A stretch of 64,000 bases of DNA. Source: a virus (lineage: Duplodnaviria; Caudoviricetes). Positions within the stretch are counted from its first letter, which is position 1. Each line of letters opens with the position of its first letter. The notes beneath the pieces are model-generated. The model was not told the DNA's origin, searched no databases, and saw nothing but the letters and a program-made list of their open reading frames with translations. The stretch is taken from positions 70,183 through 134,182 of the IMG/VR virus record IMGVR_UViG_3300011989_000005. One strand, given 5' to 3'. This document shows positions 20,583 through 36,005 of the stretch, piece after piece. The translations under genes were made by a program, and so were the position numbers.

Positions 20583-20606
20583 ACCTCTTAACAGCAAAAC
20601 AAGAAT

Positions 20607-21053
20607 ATGCCAAACAATAACACTCTTGAAAAGGCCGTCAACCTCGGGCATCTGCAGATGGCTTATAAAGCCGGAGCATTGCTGCCCGTGGACATCTCGA
20701 CGCTCACGCCTGCATCGACGTTCCCCAAGAACGCCGTCATCGGCATCGGCGGCGTGCTCTACCGCGCCAAGCGGGCCACGGCCTCGATGCCGCTGACGAT
20801 GGTGGTGAGCGACGGCAAGTTCGTCACCCATGAGGTGAACGGACAGAAGGCCTTCGTCGTGCAGGACATGACCGTCAACGCCGACTGGGATGTGTGGATG
20901 GATGCCGGGCTCAGCTACGCCTACTCGCTTGCCGACCAAAGAATCACGGCACTGGAGACCGAGACCTACACCGCCAACGGAGAACAATACACGCGCCGAC
21001 AATTACTGCAGGCCGTGGCCGAGCTGATGCAGAAAACCATTGTCACGCAGTGA
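20607..21053 (+). CDS. Hypothetical fibre-associated protein
   Basis: 148 aa ORF directly upstream of the DGR target. Confidence 0.7.
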   Translation: MPNNNTLEKAVNLGHLQMAYKAGALLPVDISTLTPASTFPKNAVIGIGGVLYRAKRATASMPLTMVVSDGKFVTHEVNGQKAFVVQDMTVNADWDVWMDAGLSYAYSLADQRITALETETYTANGEQYTRRQLLQAVAELMQKTIVTQ

Positions 21054-21100
21054 CATTATGGCTCTTGAAATATATCACGAAAACAAAAAAAACTACAATC

Positions 21101-22006
21101 ATGGCAGACAACATTGGAATAGTTACTATTCAAGAAGCGCTGAAGAACGTGCAGAACGGTCTCACGGCGCAAGACACGGCGTCGAAGACACAGACACAGA
21201 TGATCTTCGGACCCGACGGAGCACCTAACGGCAAGATACCCCTCTCGACCGATGCCGTCATCGACCTGAAGACAGGCAAGAAACTCTCCGACATCCTGGA
21301 ATACCAGAAGCCCTACGTCGACTCGGAACTCTTCGTAGACATGGGCCTGCCCTCCGGCACGCTCTGGGCCAAGGCCTCCATCGACCTCACCACGCCGTCG
21401 AAATTCCAGGAGGTGGACGGCGCAGTATCGCCCTTCAAGTACGAGTGCTCATTCTTCTCTTGGGGCAACCAGGACGGACACAATCCCAGCAGCACATCAG
21501 CCTTCGACTACAACTGGGGCGGCGTGAACGAGCAGGAGCCCTACTACGACGGACAGCCCTACGGCACGACACCCGGCAACGCCCTCACGGGCAACATACC
21601 GCCCTCGATGGACGCCGCGCGCGCCTGCCTCGGTGCGCCCTGGCGCATGCCAAGCATGGAGGACTTTTCGGAACTGTTCGCCAATATCGACTACATCGAC
21701 GCCGACGGCAACGTGGTGACGGCAGAGACCAGCATCGCCAAGACGGCTGCCGACAAGCGCGTGACGGTAAACGGCATCAACGGCCTCTACCTGCGCTCGA
21801 AGATCAACGGTAATCGTCTTTTCCTTCCGGCGTCCGGCCTCGGCTATGGCCGTTCGTGGGGCCATCGCACGGGCAATGGCTACTTCTGGTCGTCGGCGTT
21901 CCATTCGGCTCGCGGCGCCCGGTACCTGTCCTTCAATCCGCATGGTGTCGACCCGCAGGACACGAGCGGTCGGTACGGCGGTTTCCCGGTTCGGCCGGTC
22001 CAGTAA
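21101..22006 (+). CDS. DGR target protein (C-type lectin-like fold, probable receptor-binding protein)
   Basis: ATG 21101 after an A-rich leader; VDMGLPSGTLWA, WRMPS, LFLPASG, YFWSS and GFPVRPV motifs; 3' end is the VR. Confidence 0.9.
   Translation: MADNIGIVTIQEALKNVQNGLTAQDTASKTQTQMIFGPDGAPNGKIPLSTDAVIDLKTGKKLSDILEYQKPYVDSELFVDMGLPSGTLWAKASIDLTTPSKFQEVDGAVSPFKYECSFFSWGNQDGHNPSSTSAFDYNWGGVNEQEPYYDGQPYGTTPGNALTGNIPPSMDAARACLGAPWRMPSMEDFSELFANIDYIDADGNVVTAETSIAKTAADKRVTVNGINGLYLRSKINGNRLFLPASGLGYGRSWGHRTGNGYFWSSAFHSARGARYLSFNPHGVDPQDTSGRYGGFPVRPVQ
21817..22003 (+). repeat. DGR variable repeat (VR)
   Basis: 187 bp ungapped match to 22961-23147 with 22 mismatches, all opposite TR adenines. Confidence 0.97.
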
Positions 22007-22038
22007 TACTTCCGCCCGAACCATTCCTTTGTGCGCTT

Positions 22039-22080
22039 CACTGCTGCACCGCCGCGCCCCAGCGCGGCACAGCAGCAGTG
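22039..22080 (+). other. Hairpin or cruciform downstream of the VR
   Basis: cactgctgc / gcagcagtg outer stem and gccgcgc-ccca-gcgcggc inner stem. Confidence 0.7.
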
Positions 22081-22127
22081 GGGCGGACGAAGGAAACCAA
22101 CAGAAAAAATAACAGACAAATAGAGAT

Positions 22128-22808
22128 ATGTCAACAGAACAGACACAACAACAGAACCAGCCGTCTGCCAAAGTCCAGCTGCTCAGGCAGCAGGGCGAGC
22201 GGAAGGGATTCACCAACCAGGAAATCCAGACCATCGAGGCCGACAGGAAGGAGCCTGAGAAGTGGAACGTGGTTCATTTGCTGCGCGATGGAAACTACTG
22301 GCACGCCAACGAGTGGAGCGCGTGGCTGGTGGCTGTGGTCATCACCTCGCAGATGAAGCGCCTGCACCCCGACATGGAGATTGACCCGCCCACGCCGGTG
22401 AAGAAATTCGCCAAGAACATCAACGGTGAATACATCTTCGTGGGATTCCAGGAGAAGTCGTTCGACAAGTACCTGCCCAAGGAACTGGTGCTCGACTGGC
22501 GCGACGTGGAGGACGGGCGCATAGACGTGCCCGTCCAGATGCCCGACGACCACGGCGAGCTGACCTATGAGCGCCTGCAGGCCGCTTATCAGAAGTGGAA
22601 GAGCGAACAGCCGCTGTCGAATGAGAAGGGCAAGAAAGAAAGCACCAACGGCGACCGTCAGGGCCGTGGCGGCGCGATGGGCGATACGCCCGGCCACATC
22701 CTCGCCATCATGGGGCGCATCATGTCGCTGCCGCTTCACCGCACGTCGCCGATAGATGCTCACAAATTCCTCGAAGAGGTGCAGCGCGAACTGCTGGCGC
22801 ATCTCTAA
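22128..22808 (+). CDS. DGR accessory protein, MutS-like (MSL-type) rather than Avd
   Basis: Lies between VR and TR; VVHLLRDGNYWHANEWSAW and YIFVGF resemble MutS domain I; C-terminal SPIDAHKFLEEVQ helix. Confidence 0.65.
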   Translation: MSTEQTQQQNQPSAKVQLLRQQGERKGFTNQEIQTIEADRKEPEKWNVVHLLRDGNYWHANEWSAWLVAVVITSQMKRLHPDMEIDPPTPVKKFAKNINGEYIFVGFQEKSFDKYLPKELVLDWRDVEDGRIDVPVQMPDDHGELTYERLQAAYQKWKSEQPLSNEKGKKESTNGDRQGRGGAMGDTPGHILAIMGRIMSLPLHRTSPIDAHKFLEEVQRELLAHL

Positions 22809-22960
22809 ACAAAAACTGATAACCCATAAAAAAGAATGGTCCGGAAGTATTTCATAGGTCGCCCGTCATGCCCCCGCAGGGGGTGTGAAACAGTGAAGAG
22901 ACAGTCTGGTCTTGCCACGTGCAACCCCTCGCTGCCGTCGTGTAAGGTGGCGACCGAAGC

Positions 22961-23147
22961 TCTTTTCCTTCCGGCGTCCGGCAACGGCAATGGCCGTTCG
23001 TGGAACAATCGCACGGGCAATGGCAACTTCTGGTCGTCGACGTTCAATTCGGCTCGCAACGCCCGGAACCTGAACTTCAATCCGAATGGTGTCAACCCGC
23101 AGAACACGAACAATCGGTACAACGGTTTCCCGGTTCGGCCGGTCCAG
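22961..23147 (+). repeat. DGR template repeat (TR)
   Basis: 17 AAC/AAT codons in the VR frame; directly upstream of the RT. Confidence 0.97.
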
Positions 23148-23190
23148 CAATCTCAGCGGCCATTCTTTCTCTTCTTAACGCCACCGTCTG

Positions 23191-24387
23191 ATGACGCTTA
23201 CCTATCCACAACTGCTGCGCGACCTGCACGTGGCCTTCGCCAGTGCTGCCCGCCACAAGGGCAAGATGAGCTACGTCCGCCACTTCCGCTCACAGCTGCG
23301 CCTGAACCTGGCGTGCCTGGCACTGGTGCTCATCCTGCGTCGCTACGTGCCGCTGCCGTCGCGGTGCTTCATCGTGTTCCATCCCAAGCAGAGAGAGGTG
23401 TTCGCGGCGCAGTTTCCCGACAGGGTGGTGCATCATCTGTACTTCTATTATACCCACTGGCTCTACGAGGCGACGTTCATACGCGACTCGTACTCGTGCA
23501 TCGAGCATCGCGGCACGCTCGACGGCATCCTGCGGCTGGCGCAGCACATCCGGCAGGAGAGCCGCGGCTATACCCGCGAGTGCTACATCCTGAAGCTCGA
23601 CATTCGCGGCTATTTTATGCACATCGACAGACGGCGGCTGCTCAGGATATGTCTCTCGACGCTCGACAGGATGGCCACGCACCGATTGCCGAAGGAGGCA
23701 GCAGCGGTGCTCGGCGTATCACCACGGAGCACGTGGCAGCAGGTGCTCGACATGGACTTCGTGCGCTGGCTGACGGAGGTCATCGCCATGCTCGACCCGA
23801 AGACATCCTGCGAGAGGGCTATGCCCATCGAGGCGTGGAACGGTCTCGATCCCGCAAAGTCGCTCTTCTGCACGGAGGACGGGTGCGGACTGCCCATCGG
23901 CAACCTGACCTCGCAGCTGCTGTCGAACGTCTACCTGAACGTGCTCGACCAGTTTATGAAGCGTGTGCTGAAATGCCGTCGCTATGGCCGCTACGTGGAC
24001 GACTTCTACGTCGTGTCGTGCGACCGCGAGTGGCTGCTGCAGCTGGTTCCGAAGGTGCGGCGGTTCCTGAAGCAGGAGCTTGCACTCGACCTGCACATGG
24101 GAAAGGTGTGCATCTGCCGCTCGACGCAGGGCGTGGAGTTCCTGGGAGCCTACGTCCGTCCGTGGCACATCACGCCGTCGGCAGCCTCGCTGCGGCACAT
24201 ACACCGCCATCTGCGCGAGATGGACTTCAGCCGTCCCGACAAGGTGGTGCGCACGGTCAACTCCTACCTCGGCATCCTGCGCCAGACGGCCAGCTACCGC
24301 CTGCGCCGCGAGCTGTTCTTCCGGCCCGAGTACCTGCGCATCGGCCACTTCGACGCCGACATGACCTGTATGCAGCGAGCCGCATAG
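23191..24387 (+). CDS. DGR reverse transcriptase
   Basis: PKQREVFAAQFPDRVVHH, LKLDIRGYF, GLPIGNLTSQ (SQ signature) and YVDD. Confidence 0.96.
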   Translation: MTLTYPQLLRDLHVAFASAARHKGKMSYVRHFRSQLRLNLACLALVLILRRYVPLPSRCFIVFHPKQREVFAAQFPDRVVHHLYFYYTHWLYEATFIRDSYSCIEHRGTLDGILRLAQHIRQESRGYTRECYILKLDIRGYFMHIDRRRLLRICLSTLDRMATHRLPKEAAAVLGVSPRSTWQQVLDMDFVRWLTEVIAMLDPKTSCERAMPIEAWNGLDPAKSLFCTEDGCGLPIGNLTSQLLSNVYLNVLDQFMKRVLKCRRYGRYVDDFYVVSCDREWLLQLVPKVRRFLKQELALDLHMGKVCICRSTQGVEFLGAYVRPWHITPSAASLRHIHRHLREMDFSRPDKVVRTVNSYLGILRQTASYRLRRELFFRPEYLRIGHFDADMTCMQRAA

Positions 24388-24473
24388 CGGAAATCTCCCT
24401 CCGTCCCGTATGCTGCGATGGTATCGCAGCCTCACGATAAAATCATTATTCACCCATTTAAATAATTATCACA

Positions 24474-25022
24474 ATGATGAACAAGACCACAGGACCCGTG
24501 AGCGACTTTGCTCCCCTGCGCGACGAGGGTTCGCGCGTCACCGTATGTTATGGACTGCAGCAGCCTGAACAGGCAGGCGGCCTTGCCTCCTGGTATGAGG
24601 TGTATCTTTACAAGCGTCAGCACGCCACCATTTCGCTTGCCGACGTGAAGCAAGCCATCTTGACCGACATCAACGCCCGTACTACCGAGAAAATCGTTTC
24701 CGGTCTGGTGTGGACATCTGCCGATGGCGAGCAAATCCCCGTGTGGCTCTCCGTAGAGCAGCAGCTCAACTTCATGGCTGCCTATACCCGTGCCATACAG
24801 ACCAGCGGTGACAACCTGCCCGTCACCTTCAAGATGGGCGAGGACGCAGAAGGTAATCCCGTCTACCACACCTTCGTGACAATGACCGAAGCAGAGGACT
24901 TCTACCAGCACGCCACAGACCATATCCATAGTCTGCAGGCCGCAGGCTGGCAGGAGAAGGACGCTATCGACTGGACTCCCTACGAGGCCCTGTTCCCCGC
25001 AAGCGGCGGCACCGGCGAGTAG
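24474..25022 (+). CDS. Tail-fibre assembly/chaperone-like protein (DUF4376-like)
   Basis: VWLSVEQQLNF...LPVTFK...GWQEKDAIDW; position next to the fibre locus. Confidence 0.55.
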   Translation: MMNKTTGPVSDFAPLRDEGSRVTVCYGLQQPEQAGGLASWYEVYLYKRQHATISLADVKQAILTDINARTTEKIVSGLVWTSADGEQIPVWLSVEQQLNFMAAYTRAIQTSGDNLPVTFKMGEDAEGNPVYHTFVTMTEAEDFYQHATDHIHSLQAAGWQEKDAIDWTPYEALFPASGGTGE

Positions 25023-25087
25023 TCGTCCCGTCTGTTGCGATACTATCACAACAATCTCTTTCACTCTTCCCTCGGGGGCGAGAGTAT

Positions 25088-25228
25088 AAAAAAGCCCCCG
25101 ACGTTCCACAAAGGAAGAACCACCAACCATTTGCGAATGCGAGCGTTACAGGTCGCCGTCGGGGGATATAGTACCCACTGCTCGACCTGTAACGCTATTG
25201 TTTTTATATCCGCGAAGGTTGGTGGTTC
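25088..25228 (-). ncRNA. Candidate structured RNA of about 140 nt
   Basis: TATCTTTG box at 25240-25233, three perfect helices (12, 14 and 9 bp) and a terminal T6 on the minus strand. Confidence 0.5.
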
Positions 25229-25274
25229 GGTGCAAAGATAATAAGAATATTTTAATCTTTAACAAATTTGCACG

Positions 25275-25514
25275 ATGAGACGCATAGATTTAGTGGAATT
25301 TAACAAGGAACTGCTTCAAAAGCTGAACGAAGCGGGCATCCGCTTAGAGGATTATAAGTACTGCGACTTATACCGCGACTATCTTGAATTGTCTCAGACG
25401 ATGGTCACTCGCAAGGCAGTCATCTTGACGCTGGCCGAGCGTCATCATATCAGCGACAGACAAGTCTATAACATTCTTCACCACCTCGAAATGTCAGTAA
25501 ACAGAAGACATTGA
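25275..25514 (+). CDS. Small HTH DNA-binding protein (Bacteroidetes type)
   Basis: LAERHHISDRQVYNIL HTH; N-terminal FNKELLQKL..AGIRLED. Confidence 0.75.
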   Translation: MRRIDLVEFNKELLQKLNEAGIRLEDYKYCDLYRDYLELSQTMVTRKAVILTLAERHHISDRQVYNILHHLEMSVNRRH

Positions 25515-25590
25515 AACCACCGCTTCACGGATGAACAGCAGGCTTCCGGCGATATGCTTTCATTTGCTTCATAGTCAAGTGATTAGTGAA

Positions 25591-25598
25591 TAACTTTG
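25591..25598 (+). promoter_or_regulatory. Bacteroidetes -7 promoter box for the six-gene cassette
   Basis: TAACTTTG, about 70 nt upstream of ATG 25668. Confidence 0.6.
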
Positions 25599-25667
25599 CC
25601 CGTGGGTTCGGATTTCCCGACCCGCGAGTTAATTCACATTATTCACCAACACAAACACTTTACAACA

Positions 25668-26750
25668 ATGAGTGACATGAAAGTTTTCTCTATTCCCGAC
25701 TCGAACGGCGGCAATGGAGGTAATGCGCTTGCCAACGGCATCGTGCCCTTCATGCTCGGAGCGGGCATGAGCGGCGGCATGGGCTTCGGTGGCTTCGGCG
25801 GCGGCTATGGCGGATGGAACGCCATGAATATGAACAACATCACAGAGCTGTTCGCCATGGGCATCCTCGCCAGCATGTTCGGATGGAACGGTAACGGCGG
25901 CTTCGGCGGCATGGGAGGCGCAAACGGCGTAGGGTTCCTCGCCAACCAGCTGAACAACGACAACGGGCGTGAGCTGATTATGCAGGCCGTCACCTCGCAG
26001 GGCGAACAGGCACGCACGGCTACGCAGACCCTTTCGACCATGCTCGGCCAGGACTTCAACCTCGTCAACAGCGGCATCCAGCTCATCCAGAGCTCGCTGT
26101 CAAGCATCGCTGCCCAGCAGGGCATGACTCCGCTGCAGATCATCAACAGCATCCAGGCTGGCAACGCAGCCCTGAGCCAGCAGCTCTGTCAGTGCTGCTG
26201 CGACAACAAGTTCGCTATCGCCGAACAGACATCTCAGCTGCAGCAGGGCATGAACACCGGCTTCAACGGCGTGCAGATGGGTCTGAACACTGGTTTCAAC
26301 GGTGTAGAGCGCGGTCTCTCTGGCATCCAGACGCAGATGGCTCTCAACGCAGGCAAGGACGAGCTGGCCACCTGCCAGCAGACCTACATCCTCACCGACG
26401 GCGCGAACCGCAACACGCAGGCCGTTCTGGCCAAGCTCGACGCTATGCAGACCCAGGTGCTGCAGGACAAGCTCGATGCTGCCCGCGAGAAGAACACACA
26501 ACTGGCCGGCGAGATTTCGCAGCTTAACCAGAACCAGTACATCGCTGGTGTGGTAGGTCAGACGATGGCTCCCGTGAACGCACAGCTCGCTGCCCTGAAC
26601 AAGGAGGTGGACGACATCAAGTGCAAGCTGCCTAACACCGTGAACGTGCAGTACCCGAACCTGGTGGCTGTCAACGCTACGCCTTACGTGAGCGGCGGCA
26701 TCTATCCTAACGGAATGTTCGGAGGCTACGGCGGCAACTACGGTTTCTAA
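25668..26750 (+). CDS. Gly-rich, coiled-coil protein with CQCCC motif (function unknown)
   Basis: ATG 25668 after an AC-rich leader; Gly/Phe/Met-rich hydrophobic N-terminus, Gln-rich helices, 11-aa tandem duplication. Confidence 0.85.
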   Translation: MSDMKVFSIPDSNGGNGGNALANGIVPFMLGAGMSGGMGFGGFGGGYGGWNAMNMNNITELFAMGILASMFGWNGNGGFGGMGGANGVGFLANQLNNDNGRELIMQAVTSQGEQARTATQTLSTMLGQDFNLVNSGIQLIQSSLSSIAAQQGMTPLQIINSIQAGNAALSQQLCQCCCDNKFAIAEQTSQLQQGMNTGFNGVQMGLNTGFNGVERGLSGIQTQMALNAGKDELATCQQTYILTDGANRNTQAVLAKLDAMQTQVLQDKLDAAREKNTQLAGEISQLNQNQYIAGVVGQTMAPVNAQLAALNKEVDDIKCKLPNTVNVQYPNLVAVNATPYVSGGIYPNGMFGGYGGNYGF

Positions 26751-26766
26751 CGGAAGGAGGTGAGCT

Positions 26767-27111
26767 ATGGGATGTAATTTCAATATTCCAACTAACCAGG
26801 GCGGCATACCTTACCTGCAGTCCACCAACACCACCGTTGGCACCACGGCTGTAGATATTGCCCTCGGCTTCAACCGCCGTCCGCTGCCGCCCGTAGGTTA
26901 TTTCACAGTGCGGCTCACCGATGCCATTCCTGCCGGAACCACGACCACGCTGCCCGTCACGCTGACCCGCAACGGCCAGACGCGCCAGCTCACACTCTTC
27001 GACGGCACGCCCGTCACAGTGGCCGAGCTGATTGGCGGCACCGGTGTGTTCACCGTCTTCAACGACGCTGGCAATGGCATACTCCAACTGATGAGCCGCA
27101 CCGTCGTCTAA
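26767..27111 (+). CDS. Small beta-rich protein
   Basis: 114 aa Thr/Val-rich; preceded by AAGGAGGTGA. Confidence 0.8.
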   Translation: MGCNFNIPTNQGGIPYLQSTNTTVGTTAVDIALGFNRRPLPPVGYFTVRLTDAIPAGTTTTLPVTLTRNGQTRQLTLFDGTPVTVAELIGGTGVFTVFNDAGNGILQLMSRTVV

Positions 27112-27172
27112 ACTTCCGCAGGCTGCGGAAACTCCGCAGCCTGCTATTAACTAACACAAAAAGTAAAACAAC

Positions 27173-27730
27173 ATGGATTTCCAAAGTCTAAAGCAAGGTT
27201 CTCCCATATATATTCTTCAGGAAGGCGGCACCGAGCCACAACTTACCGTTGCGACGGTGGCCAACAAGCCAGAACCAAAGCCAATGTATATGACACAGAC
27301 ACCTGGTGCTACGCCCGGTATCTATGCCGGCACGAACATGATGCAGCCCGTCGTGGAGATTGTGGTCCACATGGGCAATGAGGACGTTCCGTTCTCCAAC
27401 CTCTCTCCGACAGCTTCGACAGCCACATATAATAACGGTCAGACTACTATCAGTTGCACGACTGAAGGAATGCTGCCAGCCGTGGATGCCATGATGCAGA
27501 AGGCCAGAAAGCGCATCGAGGAACGTCCCTACGACGATGCGGTTATGGTGAAAGGCAAAGAGTTCCTGATGTCGCTCAACCCTCGCTACAAAGAGGAGGA
27601 AGAGCAGAAGCAGGATATCGCCAACCTGAAAGGACAGATGGGCGACGTGGTAAACACCATGAACACCATGATGACTATGATGCAGGATCTTAACAAGAAG
27701 ATTTCCGGCACCTCGCCGAAGGGCAAGTAG
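27173..27730 (+). CDS. Hypothetical protein with C-terminal coiled coil
   Basis: 185 aa ORF. Confidence 0.8.
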   Translation: MDFQSLKQGSPIYILQEGGTEPQLTVATVANKPEPKPMYMTQTPGATPGIYAGTNMMQPVVEIVVHMGNEDVPFSNLSPTASTATYNNGQTTISCTTEGMLPAVDAMMQKARKRIEERPYDDAVMVKGKEFLMSLNPRYKEEEEQKQDIANLKGQMGDVVNTMNTMMTMMQDLNKKISGTSPKGK

Positions 27731-27795
27731 AAGTCCGTGTGCCGTGCGGCAGAACCGCACGGATAGTAAGTAACCCTTTTAAAACAGCAACGACT

Positions 27796-28137
27796 ATGAT
27801 TTTCGGAATAGAATTTCGTGACGAGCAAGACAAGCGCGAGCTCGTCGAACTGGCACAGACTGCGAAGGATAATGTCTGTGACCTGTGGGACAAGTTGGCC
27901 GAGCACATTCCCGAGCTCCAGCAGATCCAGGAGCGTGGTGGACGCTACCGCGGCGGCTACGGCATGGGATGGCAGGGCAATGTTGGCTACCGCAACTACG
28001 GTGGCGGCACCAACTTCCGCGAAGGCGGCTATCCTCCTCACATGATGGGTGGCTACGGCCCAGCTATGGGAGGCTACGGCCCAACTTTCCGCGAGAACCC
28101 CGCGTACACTGGCGGCGGTGACCGTCGCGGTTACTAA
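27796..28137 (+). CDS. Protein with Gly/Tyr/Arg-rich low-complexity tail
   Basis: Start placed at MIFGIEF; RGGRYRGGYG and repeated GGYGP. Confidence 0.75.
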   Translation: MIFGIEFRDEQDKRELVELAQTAKDNVCDLWDKLAEHIPELQQIQERGGRYRGGYGMGWQGNVGYRNYGGGTNFREGGYPPHMMGGYGPAMGGYGPTFRENPAYTGGGDRRGY

Positions 28138-28147
28138 TTCTCCCCTT

Positions 28148-28207
28148 GGGCGGGCGCTGGCGCCCGGTGCTTCTCAGCCGGGTCAATCCCGCCGCCCGCC
28201 CGTTTTT
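28148..28207 (+). terminator. Terminator-like hairpin
   Basis: gggcgggcg ... cgcccgccc followed by gttttt. Confidence 0.55.
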
Positions 28208-28264
28208 ATCATTCCTAATATCCAGTATGCTGCGGCATTGCCGCAGCCCTAAAAAAGAAAGAAT

Positions 28265-28675
28265 ATGCACCAGTACGATATAATTCCAGAGGAGCTTAGA
28301 AAGTACCTCGCCCAGTTTGGTAAGCACTTCAACAAAAAGCTCTGCGACTACGCCGTCTCCCTCATGATGAAGGCCGGACCCGACGGCAAGCCCGTCCGCA
28401 TCACTCCCATGACCCGCGAAGAGGTTGACACCCTTCTGAAGACCCACGGCGTAGAACTGAAGAACAACGTCCTCTACGATCACGTGTTCGTTGCAAACAT
28501 GGTCAAGTCCGACCAGCTCGGCTCCAGCATCATCGACGCGAAGCATCACGCACTCGCCATCAAGGACTACATCGACGATGTTGACAAGGCCGAAGGCTAT
28601 CTCTTCGACCGCTGGATGTCAGACCTCTGCGGTCTCGGTCCCCATTACCTCCCATACTGGGAAGACATGATTTAA
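28265..28675 (+). CDS. Hypothetical helical protein
   Basis: YLAQFGKHFNKKLCDYAVSLM...YDHVFVANMVKSD...YIDDVD...WEDMI. Confidence 0.85.
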   Translation: MHQYDIIPEELRKYLAQFGKHFNKKLCDYAVSLMMKAGPDGKPVRITPMTREEVDTLLKTHGVELKNNVLYDHVFVANMVKSDQLGSSIIDAKHHALAIKDYIDDVDKAEGYLFDRWMSDLCGLGPHYLPYWEDMI

Positions 28676-28714
28676 CGTTCAGTAAACGGCGGTAGTACCG
28701 CCGCCCCATTCACT

Positions 28715-29110
28715 ATGACCCGCGACTACTTAGACATTGACCGTCACTGGGGCATCCTGGCCTACTATGACGTCATCCCCGCCGACTTCTCACAGCTCGG
28801 CCCCATCCTCCGTGAGTTCTCCTGTCCCGAGGAGGAGATAGAAAAAGCCTGGCAGACCATTCACTACTCAAACAAGGCATTCATTTTCAATGTCCCCTGG
28901 GCACGCATGTCTGTCCTTGTTGTCGGCCACGTCACCCACCCCTCGCAGTTCCTCAACTCCCTTCTGCACGAGTTCGACCACCTACAGGATGCTATCCTCA
29001 AATACTACGACGTGCCCCACGGTACCGAAGACGCAGCATACCTCCAGGGCTACCTCGGTCAAATAGCCTACGACGGCATCCTGCCGCTTCTCTGTCCTGT
29101 CTGCCCTTGA
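28715..29110 (+). CDS. HExxH-motif protein (possible zinc metallopeptidase)
   Basis: LLHEFDHL with downstream EDAAYLQG. Confidence 0.7.
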   Translation: MTRDYLDIDRHWGILAYYDVIPADFSQLGPILREFSCPEEEIEKAWQTIHYSNKAFIFNVPWARMSVLVVGHVTHPSQFLNSLLHEFDHLQDAILKYYDVPHGTEDAAYLQGYLGQIAYDGILPLLCPVCP

Positions 29111-29137
29111 CCTTTTCCCGCTTGTTAGTTATTTTGT
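29102..29137 (+). promoter_or_regulatory. Putative late promoter, copy 2
   Basis: TGCCCTTGA-N19-TATTTTGT. Confidence 0.7.
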
Positions 29138-29158
29138 GCGGAAAAGGCGATATACACA

Positions 29159-30529
29159 ATGGCTCGCACTTCCTCACTCTATTATATAGCGCCGTCGGCT
29201 GTCAACGTCGTGCCTAACTGTAACGGCACGGCGAGCGACCTGTCCGTAAATGTCAGTCGCGACACTAAACTGAAAGTGTATTATCCCGACATCGCCGATC
29301 TTGACATCAGCGTGTCGGCTAACACTTATCTGGAGTGGCAGTTGAAAGGTCGCAACCGCCGGCTGAACGAAGTCAAGCCATATACCATCTACGCCCGTCT
29401 GAGTAAAACAGATCACAGCGACGGCTATATGGTATTCGCCGCGCAGGTACAAAACCCAGCGACGGGCGAATACGAAGACCCTTACATCCTGTCACCTAAC
29501 ACCAGCAGTTCCATCAATGTCACCACCACAGACCGTCGTGGGACAAAGCACACTTGGAGACCTGTACCATCGCGACAGTCACAAAGCAACCGGACAGACT
29601 TCTGGTGGATAAAAATCGGCACGGTCTCGGTGCCGGAGAATGGCAAGCGCACCGTCACCGTTGACACAGGCATCCTTGGCACCGACCAGTATAACACACA
29701 ATGGAGACTGAACCCCGATGATCTTCCTGACAGACCTGTACGAATCATCCTTGAGGACCGAGGCGCATGGACTGATACGCCATATTCCGTATATACGGGT
29801 CCCACCGGACGACGCACTCCGGACGGAACGCTTGACCCCACCGTGGCGGCGTTACTGATTTGGACTGGATCTGAGCCAATGGCAATCAACCATGGCGACC
29901 CTGTCTACGATCCCTATCACCGTGAGTCCCTGTCCCGCCGGCGCTGGATAGAGATGCGCATGTCAGAGGAGTACGCCGACCTGACCGACGCTGAGCTCTA
30001 CGTCAGGCTGACGCAGGAGACTAAGGGCTGGGAAAACGAGAACGAGCTGGAGACGAGCCGTGTGTGGCGGGGCGACAAGCTGTGGGAGTGCCTGGCGGAA
30101 GGAACCACGGAGGCTCCTGGACTTGGCTGCGCCGACTGGCGCGTTGTCAGCGGCGACACCACGTTCTATGCCGGCATCTACACCAGCAACGGCCGGACGT
30201 TCCGCAATGGCAACATTGACAGTGTGCTGACCATGCGCGTATGGTGGGGAAGCGAGGAAGTGACCGACGTGGTGCTGGCAGACCACGGGTATGACATCGC
30301 GTGGAAGCGGTTCACAGCCTACGACGCACAGACGGAGGAGTACACACAGCAGCCAGAGGACCTGTCGTGGACTGCCACAGCGGCAGGTCAGAACAAGATA
30401 CACCTGCGGCGCGGAGATATGGGCAGCGGATGGATGAGAAGCTATCGCAGCGCCATGATACGGGCTACGATGACAGCGGGCATCATCAACGGCGAGGTGA
30501 GCGAGGTGACGGCAGATTTTATATTCTGA
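29159..30529 (+). CDS. Putative tail/baseplate protein
   Basis: 456 aa beta-rich; DRGAW and LWECL...PG...DW segments. Confidence 0.6.
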   Translation: MARTSSLYYIAPSAVNVVPNCNGTASDLSVNVSRDTKLKVYYPDIADLDISVSANTYLEWQLKGRNRRLNEVKPYTIYARLSKTDHSDGYMVFAAQVQNPATGEYEDPYILSPNTSSSINVTTTDRRGTKHTWRPVPSRQSQSNRTDFWWIKIGTVSVPENGKRTVTVDTGILGTDQYNTQWRLNPDDLPDRPVRIILEDRGAWTDTPYSVYTGPTGRRTPDGTLDPTVAALLIWTGSEPMAINHGDPVYDPYHRESLSRRRWIEMRMSEEYADLTDAELYVRLTQETKGWENENELETSRVWRGDKLWECLAEGTTEAPGLGCADWRVVSGDTTFYAGIYTSNGRTFRNGNIDSVLTMRVWWGSEEVTDVVLADHGYDIAWKRFTAYDAQTEEYTQQPEDLSWTATAAGQNKIHLRRGDMGSGWMRSYRSAMIRATMTAGIINGEVSEVTADFIF

Positions 30530-30557
30530 ATGCAAAATTTATAAGCGAGATAAGACA

Positions 30558-31901
30558 ATGGCAATAAAAAGTAGAGCTTCACACAGCCAGCAGGTTTTCG
30601 ACGCACTGACGCTATCGTCGGAGATCACGGTTCGAGGCGGCAATCCGAGGCAGATGTACTCTGCCGTGCTCGGCACTTTCGAGGACGACCGCCGGTACGT
30701 GCCCTGCATCCTTGGCGGATTTGTGTTCGTGTCAGACCCGGCCGGCGTGATGAACGGCGTGGCACAGCTGACAGACATCGAATGGTACACACAGCTGCCC
30801 ATCGAGAACGACTACGCTACCGGGCGCATCACCAATCCGTCGGCAGAGATTCTGGAGGATACCGATGTGATAGACCCTGATACGGGTGCTGTCACCCACG
30901 AGGCACTATGGCGCAGTGCAGACTTCCTTGTCAGCGACGGGTCGGACAGTCCATGGTGCTCGAACGTACCGAAAAACTGCCTTATTATTCACAAGAACAT
31001 GCCTGCTGACACGTCTATGACTATTTACGGCGTGTTGAAATTCATCGACCAGCGCACAGGCGATATTGTACGGCGACTGGAGTCGAAGGATATCGGCACG
31101 TCCGGATTCAACGACGAAGCCACCGTGCTGCGCGGCCCAAGCGGAGCAGAGATTATGATTGACGCACTGGCCATACCGGATGCTGTTCCTGCAGGTCAGA
31201 CAATACTCGACATTCCATGGACGCAACGCATATCAGTACAGCTGGTAGGAGCCGAGGGTAATGTTCCTGACACGGAGGCATGTTACCAGTGGGTGGTGGA
31301 GGACTCCGACGCTGTTGCCGGCTGGCGGGCATTCACCGCCATGGAGATTGCCGCCATGCGGATAACGGGGGAAAACACCAAGTCGCTGACATACGACGCG
31401 CGAATGATAACAACCGAGACGATGCGGATGCGTTGCTATGCCGCCCGTCGCGAGGAGGGAGAGGCATGGAGCAGTCCGATTGGCAGAGACAACCCGTTCT
31501 ACGACTACCGTGTGACGGCTGAGCTGAACGGCAAGCTGACAGCAGATCCGGTTCAACTGCGCGGGGCGGTGCAGGACCTCGGCATGAGCAAACAGGTGGA
31601 GTACACAATGGACCTTCGCTACAACGGCAAGGCGGTACCATTCCCCAAGAAGTGCCTGTTCCTCGTCCACTGGTTCAGCTCAGGAAGAGTGCTTCGCAAC
31701 GGCAGTTATGTCTACGAGAGGAACGACATGGGCTACGGGCCGAACCTGATGTTCTATCCCTGCGACTACGGTTACACCTATGCCGATGGCTTTATGGTTG
31801 ATGCAGAAGTAGAGACGTACAAGGGCTGCGCGGCCGTCATGAGCGGCAACAGCTATGTCAGGCAGGGCGACAGCATGGTGATAGCTCCCACTTACGAATA
31901 A
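30558..31901 (+). CDS. Putative tail/baseplate protein
   Basis: 447 aa in the structural operon. Confidence 0.6.
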   Translation: MAIKSRASHSQQVFDALTLSSEITVRGGNPRQMYSAVLGTFEDDRRYVPCILGGFVFVSDPAGVMNGVAQLTDIEWYTQLPIENDYATGRITNPSAEILEDTDVIDPDTGAVTHEALWRSADFLVSDGSDSPWCSNVPKNCLIIHKNMPADTSMTIYGVLKFIDQRTGDIVRRLESKDIGTSGFNDEATVLRGPSGAEIMIDALAIPDAVPAGQTILDIPWTQRISVQLVGAEGNVPDTEACYQWVVEDSDAVAGWRAFTAMEIAAMRITGENTKSLTYDARMITTETMRMRCYAARREEGEAWSSPIGRDNPFYDYRVTAELNGKLTADPVQLRGAVQDLGMSKQVEYTMDLRYNGKAVPFPKKCLFLVHWFSSGRVLRNGSYVYERNDMGYGPNLMFYPCDYGYTYADGFMVDAEVETYKGCAAVMSGNSYVRQGDSMVIAPTYE

Positions 31902-31922
31902 CCCGAACAAAAAGATAACGTT

Positions 31923-32111
31923 ATGTACCTACTTATCCCGAGGGAGCGGCTACCCCAGAACCGTCATTACGAACTGATGCCCGACGGACGCGCCATCGTG
32001 AGCGGACGCGAGGCAAAGACAATGGGTGCGCTGGAAGGCGTCACCGTAGTACCCAACACCGCCATACTGCAGCAGCTGCGGGCAACAGGCACAAAGAAAC
32101 AGGAGGAATAA
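31923..32111 (+). CDS. Small hypothetical protein
   Basis: 62 aa ORF that fills the gap between tail genes. Confidence 0.65.
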   Translation: MYLLIPRERLPQNRHYELMPDGRAIVSGREAKTMGALEGVTVVPNTAILQQLRATGTKKQEE

Positions 32112-32114
32112 GAC

Positions 32115-33371
32115 ATGAACATATCAGCAGGAATAGTCATCGAAGGCGTTATTGACGGCACCACCATCGGTTATCAGGTTGTAGTCCACGGCGACAGACC
32201 GCTGGAGCAGTCGTACAACAGCAATACTGGCAAGTGCTCGCCAGACTGGGCGGCAATATGGCAGGACATAAAAGACAACGGCGTGTCGTCGGAAAAGCTG
32301 AACAGGCTGCCACGTGTCTATATCAAGGCCCGTGACCTCACGTCGGGCGAGGATGTCACCGACTCACTTGTCATTGCGAAGGTCAAGTACAACGATGCGG
32401 AGGTGGCATGGAACGACGGAGGAACGGCATTCGACATCATCAGGATGGTGGGAAAGAACGATGCCTCATACGGGCTGCCGTTCGGCGTGCCCTGTGCCAT
32501 GTTCATAGGCAACCCTGCAGACAGCCAGAACAATCCCGACAACGACCGCATAACCTTCAGCGGCACGGTGGTCGCTAACGGAGCACAGGTGTCGTTCTCC
32601 GACATCGGAAAGGACGTGAAGATATATCCTGAGCTGTCGGCGAATACAGGATATCTGGTGACGCTGAAAGTGCCCGATGACGGTGACTCCTATATCTATG
32701 ACAAGAAGGTCTCCACCATACGTGTCGCCAAACTATGGTATGACCATGAACTGATAGATCCGGCAAAGACACCTCACTTCTTCAGATACTACGACATCAC
32801 CGGCTCTGACGACACGCCTCTCGCCGATACGGCTGGCAGGATAGCCATCACTACCGTTGCTGATGGTGGAATCACCGCAACGAGCAATAAGATTGAGATA
32901 TTCCCTGATGCTGTTGACAGCATGATGACCCTGCGCTGCGATGCCTTCGCGGGAACTCCAGAGAACCCGGGCGAGCTTCTTGCCAGCGCCATCAACGTCA
33001 TCTACGACCTGAGCGATGAGTACCAGGTGCAATGGACCCTGGCGGACAATGCATCGTTCAGCAGCGGACAGGAGATGACCAGCAGCAATGACCTGAGCGA
33101 GGGACCGCGCTTCATGCTGCGCAAGGGCATGAGGAAATATTTGCGGCCCACCATTGTCGACAAAAGCGGAGAGGCTGTCGTCTTCGAGAACACACCAACG
33201 TGGACGTTCAACGCCGACAGTCCTGACGGCAATACAGCCATCAGTGACATGACCGACACAAACATCAACAACCATACGGCAGGACAGGCGTACTGCTTCA
33301 TCCAGTACTCCGACGTGGTGAAGGACAACCGCCGCCGACCGGTGAAAATCCATGCACAGACAACTATCTGA
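32115..33371 (+). CDS. Putative tail protein
   Basis: 418 aa; N-terminus paralogous to the next gene. Confidence 0.6.
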   Translation: MNISAGIVIEGVIDGTTIGYQVVVHGDRPLEQSYNSNTGKCSPDWAAIWQDIKDNGVSSEKLNRLPRVYIKARDLTSGEDVTDSLVIAKVKYNDAEVAWNDGGTAFDIIRMVGKNDASYGLPFGVPCAMFIGNPADSQNNPDNDRITFSGTVVANGAQVSFSDIGKDVKIYPELSANTGYLVTLKVPDDGDSYIYDKKVSTIRVAKLWYDHELIDPAKTPHFFRYYDITGSDDTPLADTAGRIAITTVADGGITATSNKIEIFPDAVDSMMTLRCDAFAGTPENPGELLASAINVIYDLSDEYQVQWTLADNASFSSGQEMTSSNDLSEGPRFMLRKGMRKYLRPTIVDKSGEAVVFENTPTWTFNADSPDGNTAISDMTDTNINNHTAGQAYCFIQYSDVVKDNRRRPVKIHAQTTI

Positions 33372-33389
33372 ATATTCGGTAAGAAAAAA

Positions 33390-36005
33390 ATGATCATATC
33401 CGCAGGCATTACATTCGATGGCGTCATCGACGGTCAGAACGGCACTAACGGCGACACCACGCTGCAGGCATACAAGTGGAACCAGAGCGCCACAACGGGA
33501 CCGGAGAAGCCGTCAAGGGGACAGTACGACAAAGGATGGACCGCCACAGCCCCCGACCGTCCCGTCACAACCGGCGACCACTTCCTGTGGATGACGCAGA
33601 CAGTGAGGCATACCGCCGAAGACGGCACCGTCACCTACGACGAGTGGAGCACACCCGTGCGCATCTCCGGGGACACTGGCAAACAGGGCGACGACGGCTA
33701 CGGGCTGACGCTTACGCCCTCGTCACTCATCTTCGAGGAGAAGGTGAGGACGGTGGACGGGTCAGAGGAAACCTACGTCGACTATGCGAACAACATCGTG
33801 TCGGCGGTGGTGTACAAGGGAGAAGAGCCACAGAGAACTACTGTCAGTGTCATCACCACCGGGCAGACAAGTGAAGGCTGCGACCTTAGCAAGATAACCG
33901 TATCTGGCGGTACTGTCACAATGGGTAGCGGAAGCATCAGCGACGACGTGTCATCAGGTCACTTCACCATCCGCGTGACAGCCGACGGCGGAGCCTTCGA
34001 CCGACTTGTGCGCATCAATTTCTACGTCAACAGGCTGGGTTCGTGGCGCATGAGCGTCAAACAGGATGCCATCACCGAGGCGGGTCGCCAGATAACTACC
34101 GGGCTGGGTCCTGACGGAGCTATCACCAAGGCATACGAGGGCGCCATTGACCGCCGTGCCGCAGGTTTGCGCAGTGAGTTCTCTGAACGGATTTCACGGG
34201 CTGGTGCCGACGGGCGCAACCTTTTCGGGTTCAGCAAGGGAATAGTGTTCGGCACTTTCCTGCCGTTCGTTCAAGGTTACGGTATTGTCAGCAACGTCGG
34301 CAGCGCCGGTCAGGCATACATACATCATCTGGGCTTCGACGGAGTTCCCGGTCACTACGTTGTCACCTTCCAGGCTCGCATGCTCACACAGTCCCGCAAG
34401 CTCTTCTTCCGTCTGTGGGGCGAGGGCGAGACCACCGCTCAGGAGGAGACCGTCACTACCTCATGGCGGGACTACGAGCTGCATTTCAGCATCGACTCTT
34501 TCCTGAACGACACTTCCGCATCGGGGCAGCTCTACATCAACGACCTGCATAAGAACGACGCAGGCGTGGAACAGTCGGACGCCAACTGGAACCGCATCGT
34601 CATCCGCCATCTGAAGATTGAGCGCGGACTCGCGGCTACAGGATTCTGCGCCTCCGACGAGGACATCGCCTATATCGGGCAGGGGCAGCGGATAACCAGC
34701 CTGACCCTCAGCGAAGGGGATTATCCTGTCACCTTCCCTGCAACTGTCGACGGCAGGGGCAGCGTCTATCAGGTCAGTGTGTCAGGTCTGAGCAACACCT
34801 ATCCATGGAGCCGGAATGGCGCAGGGCAGACGTATTGGGACTACATCAGCCAGCAAGGGGTGACAACGCTTGAAGCGGGCCGTTGCTACACACTGAGTTT
34901 CTGGGCGAAAGCCAGCGTTGGCGGAGTTACTATTACTCAGCACCTGTATCGTTCCGGATATGACCTCATAGACAATATCGGATCCGACTTGTACATGTCT
35001 GGCAGCTACGGGACTGTCAGCGAGAGCATGACATCCGACGGAAAAACCCACGTCCAGCTGACTACGGCATGGAAACAGTATTTTGTTCACTTCTATGCGA
35101 AAAACCCTATACCGTCAGTCAATGTGATTCCGCTACGCGTTGAGAAGGACATGAACTATGGTTCCGGCAAGAGCATCGCATCCTGCTCCATCTATATGTC
35201 AGACATCGTGCTGCAGGAGGGCTACGTCATGGACACCGCCACCTTCTCGTCGCTCATTGAGCAGAACGCCCGTCGCATCAGCCTTGTACAGCAGGCGGGA
35301 ACCCGCCGTGCCGGCATCGACGTGCAGGAAGGCACCGTAAACCTCTTTGGCGACCGCGTGTCCTTCAGCAACGCTGACGGAACCATCAGGGATAAGGTTT
35401 GGATAGATCCAAATGACGGTACACTGCATGCGGTGAATGGAGATTTCTCGGGCAATGGCACATTCCGTGGAACGGTGTATGCTTCAGATGGAGAATTTAC
35501 AGGCAAGATAAAAGCGACGGGCGGATTCTTTAAGGGAGAGAACTCTAATGGGTTCTCAATAAACTTCAACGCCGATGATCGGAGAATCACAATCAAAGGA
35601 CCGAGTTCCGTTAAAAACGTGTCAACATTAGCGCCAGCAACAGGCTCTGTCGAGGTGGAGTATGTTTCTATAGGACAATTTAGGCAAGCAGGTGGATCCT
35701 CAGAAGTGCATGGTGGTGAGCGACAGTATTATATACAATCAGATATTAGACTATACCGTCCTGGGGCGACCAACAACTATAATGGAATGATGGCTCAGTT
35801 GGATACTTATGATGGATTGATTTTTAAATATATACACAAAGTTACAGGTGAAACGAATAGATCGTGCTATGGTCCGAATAGTATGCGTGTATTCGGAGGT
35901 ATTATTTTTATTGACGACATTCCTGATTATGTTAAAGACAGAAATTCAGTTGTAGTTGGTCAAGTATATCTTGATGGCGAGACGCTAAAAGTCAGATTAA
36001 CGTAA
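33390..36005 (+). CDS. Tail fibre/spike-like protein with carbohydrate-binding-like modules
   Basis: WSTPVRISG, YTLSFWAKA and LTTAWKQY motifs; beta-repeat GTLHAVNGDFSG...GEFTGKIKATGG. Confidence 0.7.
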   Translation: MIISAGITFDGVIDGQNGTNGDTTLQAYKWNQSATTGPEKPSRGQYDKGWTATAPDRPVTTGDHFLWMTQTVRHTAEDGTVTYDEWSTPVRISGDTGKQGDDGYGLTLTPSSLIFEEKVRTVDGSEETYVDYANNIVSAVVYKGEEPQRTTVSVITTGQTSEGCDLSKITVSGGTVTMGSGSISDDVSSGHFTIRVTADGGAFDRLVRINFYVNRLGSWRMSVKQDAITEAGRQITTGLGPDGAITKAYEGAIDRRAAGLRSEFSERISRAGADGRNLFGFSKGIVFGTFLPFVQGYGIVSNVGSAGQAYIHHLGFDGVPGHYVVTFQARMLTQSRKLFFRLWGEGETTAQEETVTTSWRDYELHFSIDSFLNDTSASGQLYINDLHKNDAGVEQSDANWNRIVIRHLKIERGLAATGFCASDEDIAYIGQGQRITSLTLSEGDYPVTFPATVDGRGSVYQVSVSGLSNTYPWSRNGAGQTYWDYISQQGVTTLEAGRCYTLSFWAKASVGGVTITQHLYRSGYDLIDNIGSDLYMSGSYGTVSESMTSDGKTHVQLTTAWKQYFVHFYAKNPIPSVNVIPLRVEKDMNYGSGKSIASCSIYMSDIVLQEGYVMDTATFSSLIEQNARRISLVQQAGTRRAGIDVQEGTVNLFGDRVSFSNADGTIRDKVWIDPNDGTLHAVNGDFSGNGTFRGTVYASDGEFTGKIKATGGFFKGENSNGFSINFNADDRRITIKGPSSVKNVSTLAPATGSVEVEYVSIGQFRQAGGSSEVHGGERQYYIQSDIRLYRPGATNNYNGMMAQLDTYDGLIFKYIHKVTGETNRSCYGPNSMRVFGGIIFIDDIPDYVKDRNSVVVGQVYLDGETLKVRLT

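Follow-up and report, generated by a model that had tools for sequence, protein, structure and literature searches.

The window analysed here is the right-hand 64 kb (64,000 nucleotides) of a 134,182-bp viral record, IMGVR_UViG_3300011989_000005, for which the CheckV completeness estimate is 100%; all positions below are those of the window. The phage is predicted to be long-tailed, and a 2803-aa (amino acid) tape-measure protein (phrog_28) and a prohead protease (phrog_53) are encoded on the minus strand of the window. Between positions 25275 and 29110 lies a run of co-oriented genes, g1 to g7, of which g2 to g7 form the cassette that is the subject of this work (capital letters, as in G2, denote the proteins and their families). 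We conclude that this cassette is a self-contained, horizontally portable operon common to many Bacteroidales phages. A preliminary description of the locus had listed a helix-turn-helix (HTH) open reading frame (ORF) followed by six further co-oriented ORFs, and all seven exist as described. The features of the locus are as follows.

25275..25514, plus strand: g1, a putative HTH protein of 79 aa, an optional upstream companion
25591..25598, plus strand: TAACTTTG, the Bacteroidota-type -7 promoter box of the g2 operon
25668..26750, plus strand: g2, 360 aa (phrog_16490, E 2e-35)
26754-26762: GGAAGGAGG, a strong Shine-Dalgarno-like sequence before g3
26767..27111, plus strand: g3, 114 aa, 16 nt past the g2 stop (phrog_31654, E 1.1e-12)
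27118..27144, plus strand: hairpin of 12 bp in the g3/g4 gap, -25.5 kcal/mol, z -7.6
27173..27730, plus strand: g4, 185 aa (phrog_28898, E 1.2e-18)
27742..27762, plus strand: hairpin of 8 bp in the g4/g5 gap, -15.8 kcal/mol, z -3.2
27796..28137, plus strand: g5, 113 aa, ATG start
28148..28201, plus strand: GC-rich hairpin and then a T-run, after g5, -37.4 kcal/mol, z -3.5
28229..28247, plus strand: hairpin before g6, D2 family, z -4.3
28265..28675, plus strand: g6, 136 aa, DUF7841 (PF25223; phrog_38431)
28687..28703, plus strand: hairpin before g7, D2 family, z -2.5
28715..29110, plus strand: g7, 131 aa, with HExxH...E, a putative small zincin-like metallopeptidase
29101..29110, plus strand: CTGCCCTTGA, an exact copy of a putative late-gene motif, overlapping the g7 stop 49-58 nt before g8, at the downstream edge

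Two of the start codons were corrected. The listed start of g2, a TTG at 25596, falls inside the promoter box. Because the N-termini of homologues align at the ATG at 25668, and because RNA contigs (see below) start between 25620 and 25668, the true start is almost certainly this ATG. For g5, the N-termini of homologues start at ATG 27796. A-rich leaders that lack a Shine-Dalgarno sequence are typical of Bacteroidota, and the cassette genes other than g3 have such leaders. The five intergenic hairpins, with z-scores from -2.5 to -7.6, bear out the hairpin punctuation noted in the preliminary description. Two of them, preceding g6 and g7, belong to a family (D2, 'GTTCAGTAnGCTGC...') with seven intergenic copies in the window, at 19998, 24397, 28214, 28671, 37597, 38323 and 57540. 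D2 hairpins have the common flank GTTCAGTAnGC and keep one DNA orientation throughout, whichever strand the adjacent genes are on; they could serve in recombination or shuffling, or in RNA processing.

Relatives of the cassette were collected with G2, which yielded 39 loci in a scan of IMG/VR and 19 further loci in a scan of GTDB genomes. The latter lie in rumen and gut Bacteroidales metagenome-assembled genomes, bar two short contigs in Clostridiales- and Eubacteriales-labelled bins. All cluster members then served as tblastn queries to score gene content in the 58 loci; as every locus was found through G2, the counts are of co-occurrence given G2, which is present in 58/58 by construction. 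G4 was found in 56/58 loci, G3 and G6 in 55/58 each, G7 in 51/58, G5 in 32/58 and g1 in 27/58. G5 diverges fast, and in the loci examined a small ORF stands between G4 and G6, most of these encoding an acidic stretch and an Arg/Tyr-rich tail. G2, G3, G4, G6 and G7 occur together in 50/58 loci, and the genes are collinear and co-oriented in 57/58. Six of the eight incomplete loci end at a contig edge less than 2.8 kb past the G2 start, while L028 lacks G3 and L031 lacks G7. The preliminary description had proposed a discrete multi-gene system, a proposal that would have failed had the genes not co-occurred elsewhere; they do co-occur, across many phages.

What surrounds the cassette varies. ORF clustering of 42 loci gave flanking clusters common to seven loci at most. 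The relative L005, whose cassette proteins share 93-98% identity with those of the window, lacks g8-g11, the genes that follow here; in several close relatives the cassette directly abuts head genes. As the flanks differ even in L005 and no flanking cluster is widely common, the cassette is the stable element and it is the neighbours that are swapped. The preliminary view that it was inserted between tail modules is only half right, since conservation lies with the cassette and variation with what adjoins it. Upstream, g1 is replaced by an unrelated HTH_17 protein in seven loci. A nucleotide search of the cassette against the INPHARED phages gave no match. Four of the IMG/VR loci (L024, L027, L029 and L036) are independent whole contigs of 2614-2780 nt that hold G2 to G7 alone, beginning 33-51 nt before the G2 ATG and ending inside G7. 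These contigs are AT-rich with many in-frame TAG codons and look like assembled mRNAs. A small circular element was also considered for these 2.6-2.8-kb contigs and dropped, as none of the four has terminal repeats.

Lysis genes were called with the holin family PF05105, Phage_lysozyme, Amidase_2/3 and the endolysin PHROGs. A recognised holin or endolysin gene lies one to eight genes from the cassette in nine non-redundant loci (L002, L003, L019, L022, L025, L028, L030, L031 and L039), and in L039 a holin and an amidase directly follow G7. L022, L026 and L034 carry a further protein of 135-149 aa (cluster c43; for example L026:6727-7173) with a signal peptide, the lipobox LPAC and, at the C-terminus, a hydrophobic helix; the architecture resembles that of a unimolecular spanin, and no PHROG family matches. 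To our knowledge, such spanins have seldom been documented in Bacteroidales phages.

The cassette also occurs in named phages. By tblastn, G2 is present in 16 GenBank phage records, including the Suoliviridae crassviruses cr109_1, cr4_1, cr116_1 and cr271_1-cr273_1, crAssphage ctcc615, the cultured Bacteroides phage C3_41T2LP and six uncultured phages; G4 is found in 12 of these records, each time about 1 kb downstream of G2. In cr109_1 and cr4_1 the order is holin, a LysB-like gene (cr109_1 only), G6, G2, G3, G4 and then a protein that matches CrAss_Ring_2 (PF25702, E 2.5e-82), and G7 is absent from both loci. In GenBank the crassvirus G6 is labelled 'sigma factor/ubiquitin-like' and the crassvirus G2 'outer capsid protein/viral fiber'. 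We confirmed the cr109_1 G6 as DUF7841 (148 bits). It bears at its C-terminus an acidic plus Arg/Tyr/Gly tail resembling G5, and this fusion of a G5-like tail suggests that G5 and G6 are functionally linked. C3_41T2LP (OR296439), whose host is B. uniformis, carries all of G2, G3, G4, a small protein in the G5 position, G6 and G7, at about 31100-34400 of its record; the last of these, the G7 homologue, was labelled 'PolyVal metallopeptidase' on deposition. A literature search found no paper on C3_41T2LP or MB20-41.

The control regions of the cassette were compared next to those of the rest of the phage. The host-type promoter box that the preliminary description placed before the unit, TAACTTTG, is present. 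Its general form TAnnTTTG occurs in the window at chance level (16 found, 15.3 expected), yet it stands no more than 150 nt upstream of the G2 start in 24/36 distinct upstream regions, mostly at -57 to -85, against a background of 7.6% of random 150-nt windows from the same loci. The promoter thus belongs to what is conserved in the module. The same description reported that the unit had no copy of a late motif that it did not spell out, which we take here to be CTGCCCTTGA. This sequence occurs 10 times in the window at no more than one mismatch (5 exact, 5 with one mismatch) against 4.65 expected, and one of 100 shuffles reaches 10. The exact copies are at 29101, 39955, 43213, 53223 and 55286, and those with one mismatch include 19609, 41905 and 52344. 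The copies are oriented like the downstream head and tail genes and lie 50-100 nt ahead of the starts checked, which makes CTGCCCTTGA a candidate phage-specific late promoter or activator site. None lies inside 25275-29100, in agreement with that description; one exact copy overlaps the g7 stop.

RNA from the cassette is found in public data. Twenty metatranscriptomic runs from nine studies hold 6-20% of the sampled words of the cassette. The RNA contigs of four of these runs (X1, X2, X5 and X7, one per study) were placed on window positions 20001-40000. In X1 two contigs span 25620-26624 and 26595-28005, and in X2 a single contig spans 25668-28118. The g2-g5 RNA thus covers about 25620 to about 28120-28140, stopping ahead of the GC-rich hairpin with its T-run, and g1 is not on these abundant contigs. 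Contig depths are listed below; contig depth is a poor measure of expression that cannot rank genes, the runs were chosen for holding this stretch, and DNA carry-over in metatranscriptomes is possible.

20001-25336 (retroelement and DUF4376 genes): depth at most 5 in all four runs
26004-28004 (three bins in g2-g5): X1 35-47.5; X2 11.2-11.3; X5 7.9-23.2; X7 3.4-6.4
28005-28671 (past the hairpin at 28148-28201 and into g6): 2.5-3.7 in all runs
29339-33340 (g8-g10): nil
36676-40000 (putative head genes): X1 9.9-21.6; X2 2.0-4.7; X5 1.5-16.3; X7 at most 1

The contigs end sharply at the promoter and at the terminator-like hairpin, as would be expected of a single abundant transcript of g2-g5 from which some read-through, at a lower level, reaches g6-g7, and the hairpin and T-run at 28148-28201 are likely to be a terminator or attenuator of that transcript. 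No RNA contig fell over 29339-33340 or 34008-36008, a stretch that is not conserved among relatives, so that the gap is uninformative on expression. The putative capsid gene is covered by RNA contigs in three of the four runs. The self-regulation proposed in the preliminary description stays conjectural: g1 accompanies fewer than half of the loci, gives way to the HTH_17 protein in others and is off the abundant RNA.

The genetic code of the relatives bears on when the genes are used. In-frame TAG codons occur in the cassette genes of nine relatives, namely seven AT-rich loci (L024, L027, L029, L030, L033, L036 and L037, six of which have 7-9 TAG in G2) and both crassvirus loci. Metaproteomics has shown TAG read as Gln in crAss-like phages, and the authors of that work tie TAG recoding to late structural and lytic genes (PMC9523058). 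The same study lists proteins of two TAG-recoded crAss-like phages detected in faecal metaproteomes enriched for virus-like particles. No tyrosine or serine recombinase (PF00589 or PF00239) was found in the 134-kb record, in a search in which control genomes gave matches. In two or three relatives, L014 and L028 among them, the cassette has a tyrosine integrase gene (Phage_int_SAM_5 / phrog_1) as its neighbour; the carriers therefore seem to include temperate phages as well as phages that have no detectable recombinase. The preliminary description had considered the unit probably expressed in the lysogen. Given the late-gene mark of TAG recoding and the lack of a detectable integrase here, lysogen-specific expression is unsupported, and the crassvirus carriers and the capsid RNA also speak against it. 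We conclude that the cassette is probably not a lysogeny-specific system. Of the earlier interpretation, the conserved, undescribed multi-gene unit is supported and its lysogenic setting is not.

The traits that the preliminary description read from the proteins were confirmed for G2 (Gly-rich with CQCCC), G5 (a Gly/Tyr/Arg tail) and G7 (HExxH). G2 is 15% Gly overall, with 26% Gly in the first 110 residues, and 20% Gln plus Asn; its CQCCC begins at residue 174, and the CCC is invariant in 18/18 aligned homologues. The alignment opens with a conserved N-terminal peptide, MxxxK-V/I-F/Y-x-F/I-P-D/E, followed by a conserved Trp/Phe/Met/Leu-rich segment between Gly/Asn runs and then by a Gln/Asn-rich helical core. 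Also conserved are QQLCQCCC, CQQT and a block ...DDIKCKxPNTVxVxYPNLxAVNxTPY, and the tail is rich in Gly, Tyr and Phe with an aromatic last residue. By its hydropathy G2 is not a classical membrane protein: the maximum Kyte-Doolittle (KD) value over 19 residues (KD19) is 1.22, and the transmembrane threshold of 1.6 is reached by 2/41 orthologues only. The family is large: of 8000 candidates, clustered at 90% identity, at least 4616 score E <= 1e-5; among the 120 matches listed none is named and none has a Pfam domain, and the protein atlas likewise gave only unnamed viral clusters. A profile search against the PDB gave sub-threshold matches to the coronavirus S2 heptad repeat 1, influenza HA2 13-85 and mitofusin (E 0.01-1), and such matches to coiled-coil fusion proteins would explain the 'fiber' and 'spike' labels in GenBank. 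Longer fused forms were not found for G2 (631-2000 aa) or for G6 (239-2000 aa), which is weak evidence in either case.

The remaining proteins gave fewer leads. No cassette protein belongs to a characterised family, so the earlier impression that the unit holds no recognisable core virion or replication gene was right. The small protein encoded by g1 falls in phrog_17790 (function unknown, E 3.8e-16), and its Pfam HTH matches are all sub-threshold (HTH_Tnp_ISL3 0.038, HTH_23 0.047 and others). G3 has no Pfam match, no PDB match by profile and no signal peptide or lipobox, neither of which is seen in the sequence of any other cassette protein. The AlphaFold2 model of G4 (predicted local distance difference test, pLDDT, 79) has an SH3/KOW-like beta-barrel, then a helical hairpin and then a 42-residue helix. 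Its closest fold in a VIA search is EF-P domain I (residues 1-97, Z 6.2, root-mean-square deviation 2.2 A over 63 residues); beyond a generic SH3/KOW-like barrel at Z of about 6, the fold search returned coiled-coil noise only. A profile of G4 against the PDB gave sub-threshold paramyxovirus F and SNARE matches (E 0.1-1). Complex prediction for G2 residues 100-360, G4 and G3 as partner scored 0.00 against a mark of 0.32 and, run with no controls, counts neither for nor against binding. G5 has a short structured N-terminus with a conserved Cys, an acidic stretch and a 64-residue tail that holds 21 Gly, 9 Tyr and 6 Arg. G6 is a DUF7841 protein (PF25223, 76.9 bits against a cut-off of 25.2, E 1.8e-21), with sub-threshold or irrelevant matches only in a profile search of the PDB. 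A literature search found no paper naming DUF7841, PF25223, phrog_16490 or phrog_38431.

G7 is a putative small zincin-like metallopeptidase. Its motif is HEFDH, and H85, E86, H89 and E105 are invariant in 18/18 sequences. In the AlphaFold2 model (pLDDT 95.5) the HExxH lies in a helix at 76-97 and E105, a putative third ligand 16 residues past the second His, opens a helix at 105-126. This arrangement, an invariant HExxH and then a Glu in the next helix, is that of the MPTase-PolyVal, SprT-like and M78 zincins. The closest model in BFVD is labelled 'PolyVal Metallopeptidase superfamily domain' (E 1.7e-10, template-modelling score 0.89, 25% identity), and weaker BFVD matches carry SprT-like, IrrE and metalloprotease labels (E 0.06-0.12) or are crAss-like and many other phage proteins. 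G7 differs from the MPTase-PolyVal and SprT-like zincins in having no match to a curated family or to a solved zincin fold. For G7 and 17 relatives no Pfam family rose beyond chance (best DUF6782 0.035, M78 0.045 and SprT-like 0.054, single members each), the 'PolyVal' protein of C3_41T2LP matched 0 Pfam families at E <= 0.01, and Foldseek against the PDB gave nothing at E <= 1e-3, with the PDB profile search also sub-threshold or irrelevant. As neither a Pfam peptidase model nor a solved zincin structure matches, we call G7 zincin-like by its motif and not as a member of a family. A likeness to the CorA N-terminal domain was rejected, as its best VIA Z of 4.9-5.0 is below the tool's stated noise level.

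Around the cassette, the window carries the following features. A diversity-generating retroelement (DGR), recognised from its repeats and ORFs, sits just upstream, and the large ORFs downstream have weak matches only, to tail proteins or carbohydrate binding; this downstream block is swapped in and looks related to host range.

20894-24387: DGR region, with a 370-aa target ORF that has the first repeat copy at its 3' end
21817-22007 and 22961-23151: DGR template/variable repeat pair, 191 nt, 88% identical
22128-22808: 226-aa ORF within the DGR region
23191-24387: reverse-transcriptase-sized ORF of the DGR
24474-25022: gene for a DUF4376 protein, between the DGR and the cassette
29159-36005: g8-g11, large ORFs of 456, 447, 418 and 871 aa downstream of the cassette, the 871-aa g11 with a weak CBM_4_9 match
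38435-39859, minus strand: 474-aa ORF beside the prohead protease gene, with an InlB B-repeat (Flg_new_2) insertion

The 474-aa ORF is the putative capsid gene; it has a protein atlas lead only (0.87-0.88), to Phi29-like major capsid proteins, and matches no PHROG family. DGR target-type proteins also flank the cassette in several loci (the window, L008-L010 and L033). Between the DUF4376 gene and g1, at 25142-25196, there is a perfect stem of 14 bp that encloses a further hairpin (-33.4 kcal/mol, z -5.0). The sole endolysin detected in this genome is an Amidase_2 protein at about 58367-58804; PF00959 and PF01520 were not found in the genome, and the holin-, endolysin- and spanin-like flank clusters of the relatives have no tblastn match in it. 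Elsewhere in the window, a repeat of about 50-80 nt containing TTCACTCTTCACTCTTCACT has four copies, at 16367-16443, 43249-43325, 60235-60311 and 63619-63702, with related copies in the opposite orientation at 8572, 43226 and 59971. One tRNA gene lies at 62618-62688 on the minus strand (Rfam, 54 bits), and at the gathering threshold Rfam gave nothing else in the window.

We hypothesize that the cassette encodes an abundantly made, portable, virion-associated set of fibre and adaptor proteins with their helpers, a reading to which we assign a probability of about 0.4. Productive infection would be the time when the products are made, in large amounts, to form an accessory structure of the particle. 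G2 would be an oligomeric coiled-coil fibre with a cysteine knot and sticky Gly- and aromatic-rich ends, docking through its conserved N-terminal peptide; G3 and G4, the latter with its SH3-like barrel plus coiled coil, would be its adaptors at the head or neck; and G5, G6 and G7 would be helpers made or needed in smaller amounts. In a variant, G2 and G5 would be packaged as 'cargo'. phi29 gp8.5 and T4 fibritin are coiled-coil head or neck fibres, and the Gln/Asn-rich helical core of G2 suggests an oligomeric coiled coil of that kind. There is no detectable homology to either, and G2 differs in its Gly- and aromatic-rich ends and invariant CCC, which are not known from those fibres. Exchange of fibre modules between unrelated phages has a precedent in crAss001, where the C-terminal domain of gp21 is 40% identical to phi29 gp8.5 (PMC10172136).

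We favour a virion-associated role mainly on a positional analogy with crAss001. In that phage the tail-hub proteins THA (gp38) and THB (gp39) are encoded directly before ring protein 2 (gp40), with the auxiliary capsid protein gp36 just upstream (PMC10172136). In Suoliviridae, G2-G3-G4 stand directly upstream of ring protein 2, in the position of gp36, gp38 and gp39, and the sizes are broadly comparable (333, 215 and 114 aa for the crAss001 proteins, 327, 146 and 188 aa for those of cr109_1). By single-sequence search no homologue of gp36 or gp38 was found in cr109_1 or cr4_1, a result that shows little, as the search had no positive control genome. The crAss001 hub grips N-terminal residues of the trimeric fibre gp22 (PMC10172136), and G2 has a conserved N-terminal peptide. 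The virions of crAss001 are stabilised by disulfide bonds (PMC10172136), which makes a Cys-rich virion protein plausible. A difference is that the cassette is also found in long-tailed phages that lack ring proteins.

Several observations weigh against a fibre and adaptor set. The module occurs both in short-tailed crassviruses and in a phage with a 2803-aa tape-measure protein, which is unusual for parts fitted to a virion. Comparison of the G2, G3 and G4 profiles with crAss001 gp36, gp39 and gp38 by hhalign gave nothing (probabilities below 1%), the fold searches with G4 list no crAss001 chain, and the PDB profile searches with G2-G4 list no gp36, gp38 or gp39; more broadly, no cassette protein resembles a solved virion protein by sequence profile. 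G2 is best conserved at its C-terminus, which is unexpected for a receptor-binding fibre, and its aromatic, hydrophobic segment suggests membrane contact. The cassette uses a host-type promoter and not the phage's own CTGCCCTTGA motif, lysis genes lie close by in the nine loci named above, and the claim of bulk production leans on contig depth, with the limits given there. Finally, there is no virion proteome for any carrier of the cassette, and none was found in the literature for a Suoliviridae phage.

The alternative that we take most seriously, unlikely as we hold it to be, is a hitherto unrecognised, horizontally portable machine of Bacteroidales phages that is not part of the canonical virion: a self-assembling, envelope-acting or intracellular structure of G2 with G3/G4 and G5, matured by G7 and aided by the DUF7841 protein G6. 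If this were true, the cassette might represent a new way to breach or remodel the Bacteroidota envelope at egress or entry. Another alternative is an accessory of the lysis programme acting in egress or on the envelope, in which G2, with an interfacial segment rich in Gly and aromatic residues, a long coiled coil and a Gly/aromatic C-terminal end, and the SNARE- or heptad repeat B-like helix of G4 would bridge or perturb the Bacteroidota envelope and the Arg/Tyr-rich tail of G5 would be a cationic, membrane-active peptide, masked by the acidic part and perhaps released by G7. Spanins and the cationic 'disruptin' peptide are phage lysis factors, and the cassette resembles them in a coiled-coil protein with conserved Cys, in the Arg-rich G5 tail and in its frequent holin and endolysin neighbours, with L039 the closest case. 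The sub-threshold matches of G2 to fusion proteins and of G4 to paramyxovirus F and SNAREs, and the conserved Trp/Phe/Met-rich segment of G2, would fit as well. However, these PDB matches fall short of significance and are of a kind that any coiled coil would give, few G2 orthologues reach the transmembrane threshold, and G3 has neither signal peptide nor lipobox, leaving the cassette with no lipoprotein partner or clear transmembrane helix such as spanins have. In this genome the only endolysin found is about 30 kb from the cassette, L022, L026 and L034 have a separate spanin-like gene, and six conserved proteins are many for such a task. A role in lysis is therefore possible, but it is not the best fit and we regard it as rather improbable. 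A further alternative, which we think more doubtful still, is a non-virion intracellular assembly made during infection, in which low-complexity G2 and G5 self-associate into a scaffold, filament or condensate that would organise replication or particle assembly, or serve as bulk counter-defence, with G7 processing its components. The portability of the module between unrelated virion types, the co-evolution of six proteins as one unit, the abundant RNA, the RGG-like and FG-like composition of G2 and G5 and the lack of similarity to known virion proteins would all suit it. Against it, there is no positive evidence for self-assembly and the crassvirus genes are embedded in a block of tail genes; we know of no precedent for such an assembly in phages of this size.

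Least probable, in our estimate, is the reading of the preliminary description, a moron-like unit, constitutive or expressed from the prophage, that would provide superinfection exclusion or modify the host surface. Morons are independent promoter-gene-terminator units between late genes, and the cassette likewise lies between variable late genes, with a conserved promoter of host sigma type and a terminator-like hairpin that are its own and separate from the late operons. The absence of CTGCCCTTGA from its interior, the tyrosine integrase beside it in two or three relatives and the small HTH gene that is usually upstream, whether g1 or the HTH_17 protein, point the same way. Unlike a moron of one or two genes, however, the cassette has six conserved genes, and crassviruses carry it within their tail-gene block. 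No recombinase was found in this 134-kb genome, and the putative capsid RNA seen in three of the four g2-g5 runs is at depths within a few-fold of the cassette's own. The TAG-recoded relatives, moreover, cannot translate the cassette genes before the late code switch (PMC9523058).

Bacteroidales phages, crassviruses among them, figure prominently in the viromes of gut and rumen, and for most of their genes no function is known. Here we describe a cassette that is very widespread, common to very different phage types and abundant in metatranscriptomes; leaving aside the classical modules for head, tail and replication, its gene order is among the better conserved. Since a cultured carrier, C3_41T2LP, exists, its function is directly testable. 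Knowing that function would annotate thousands of genes, and it could reveal how these phages attach to, enter or exit from capsulated Bacteroidales cells.

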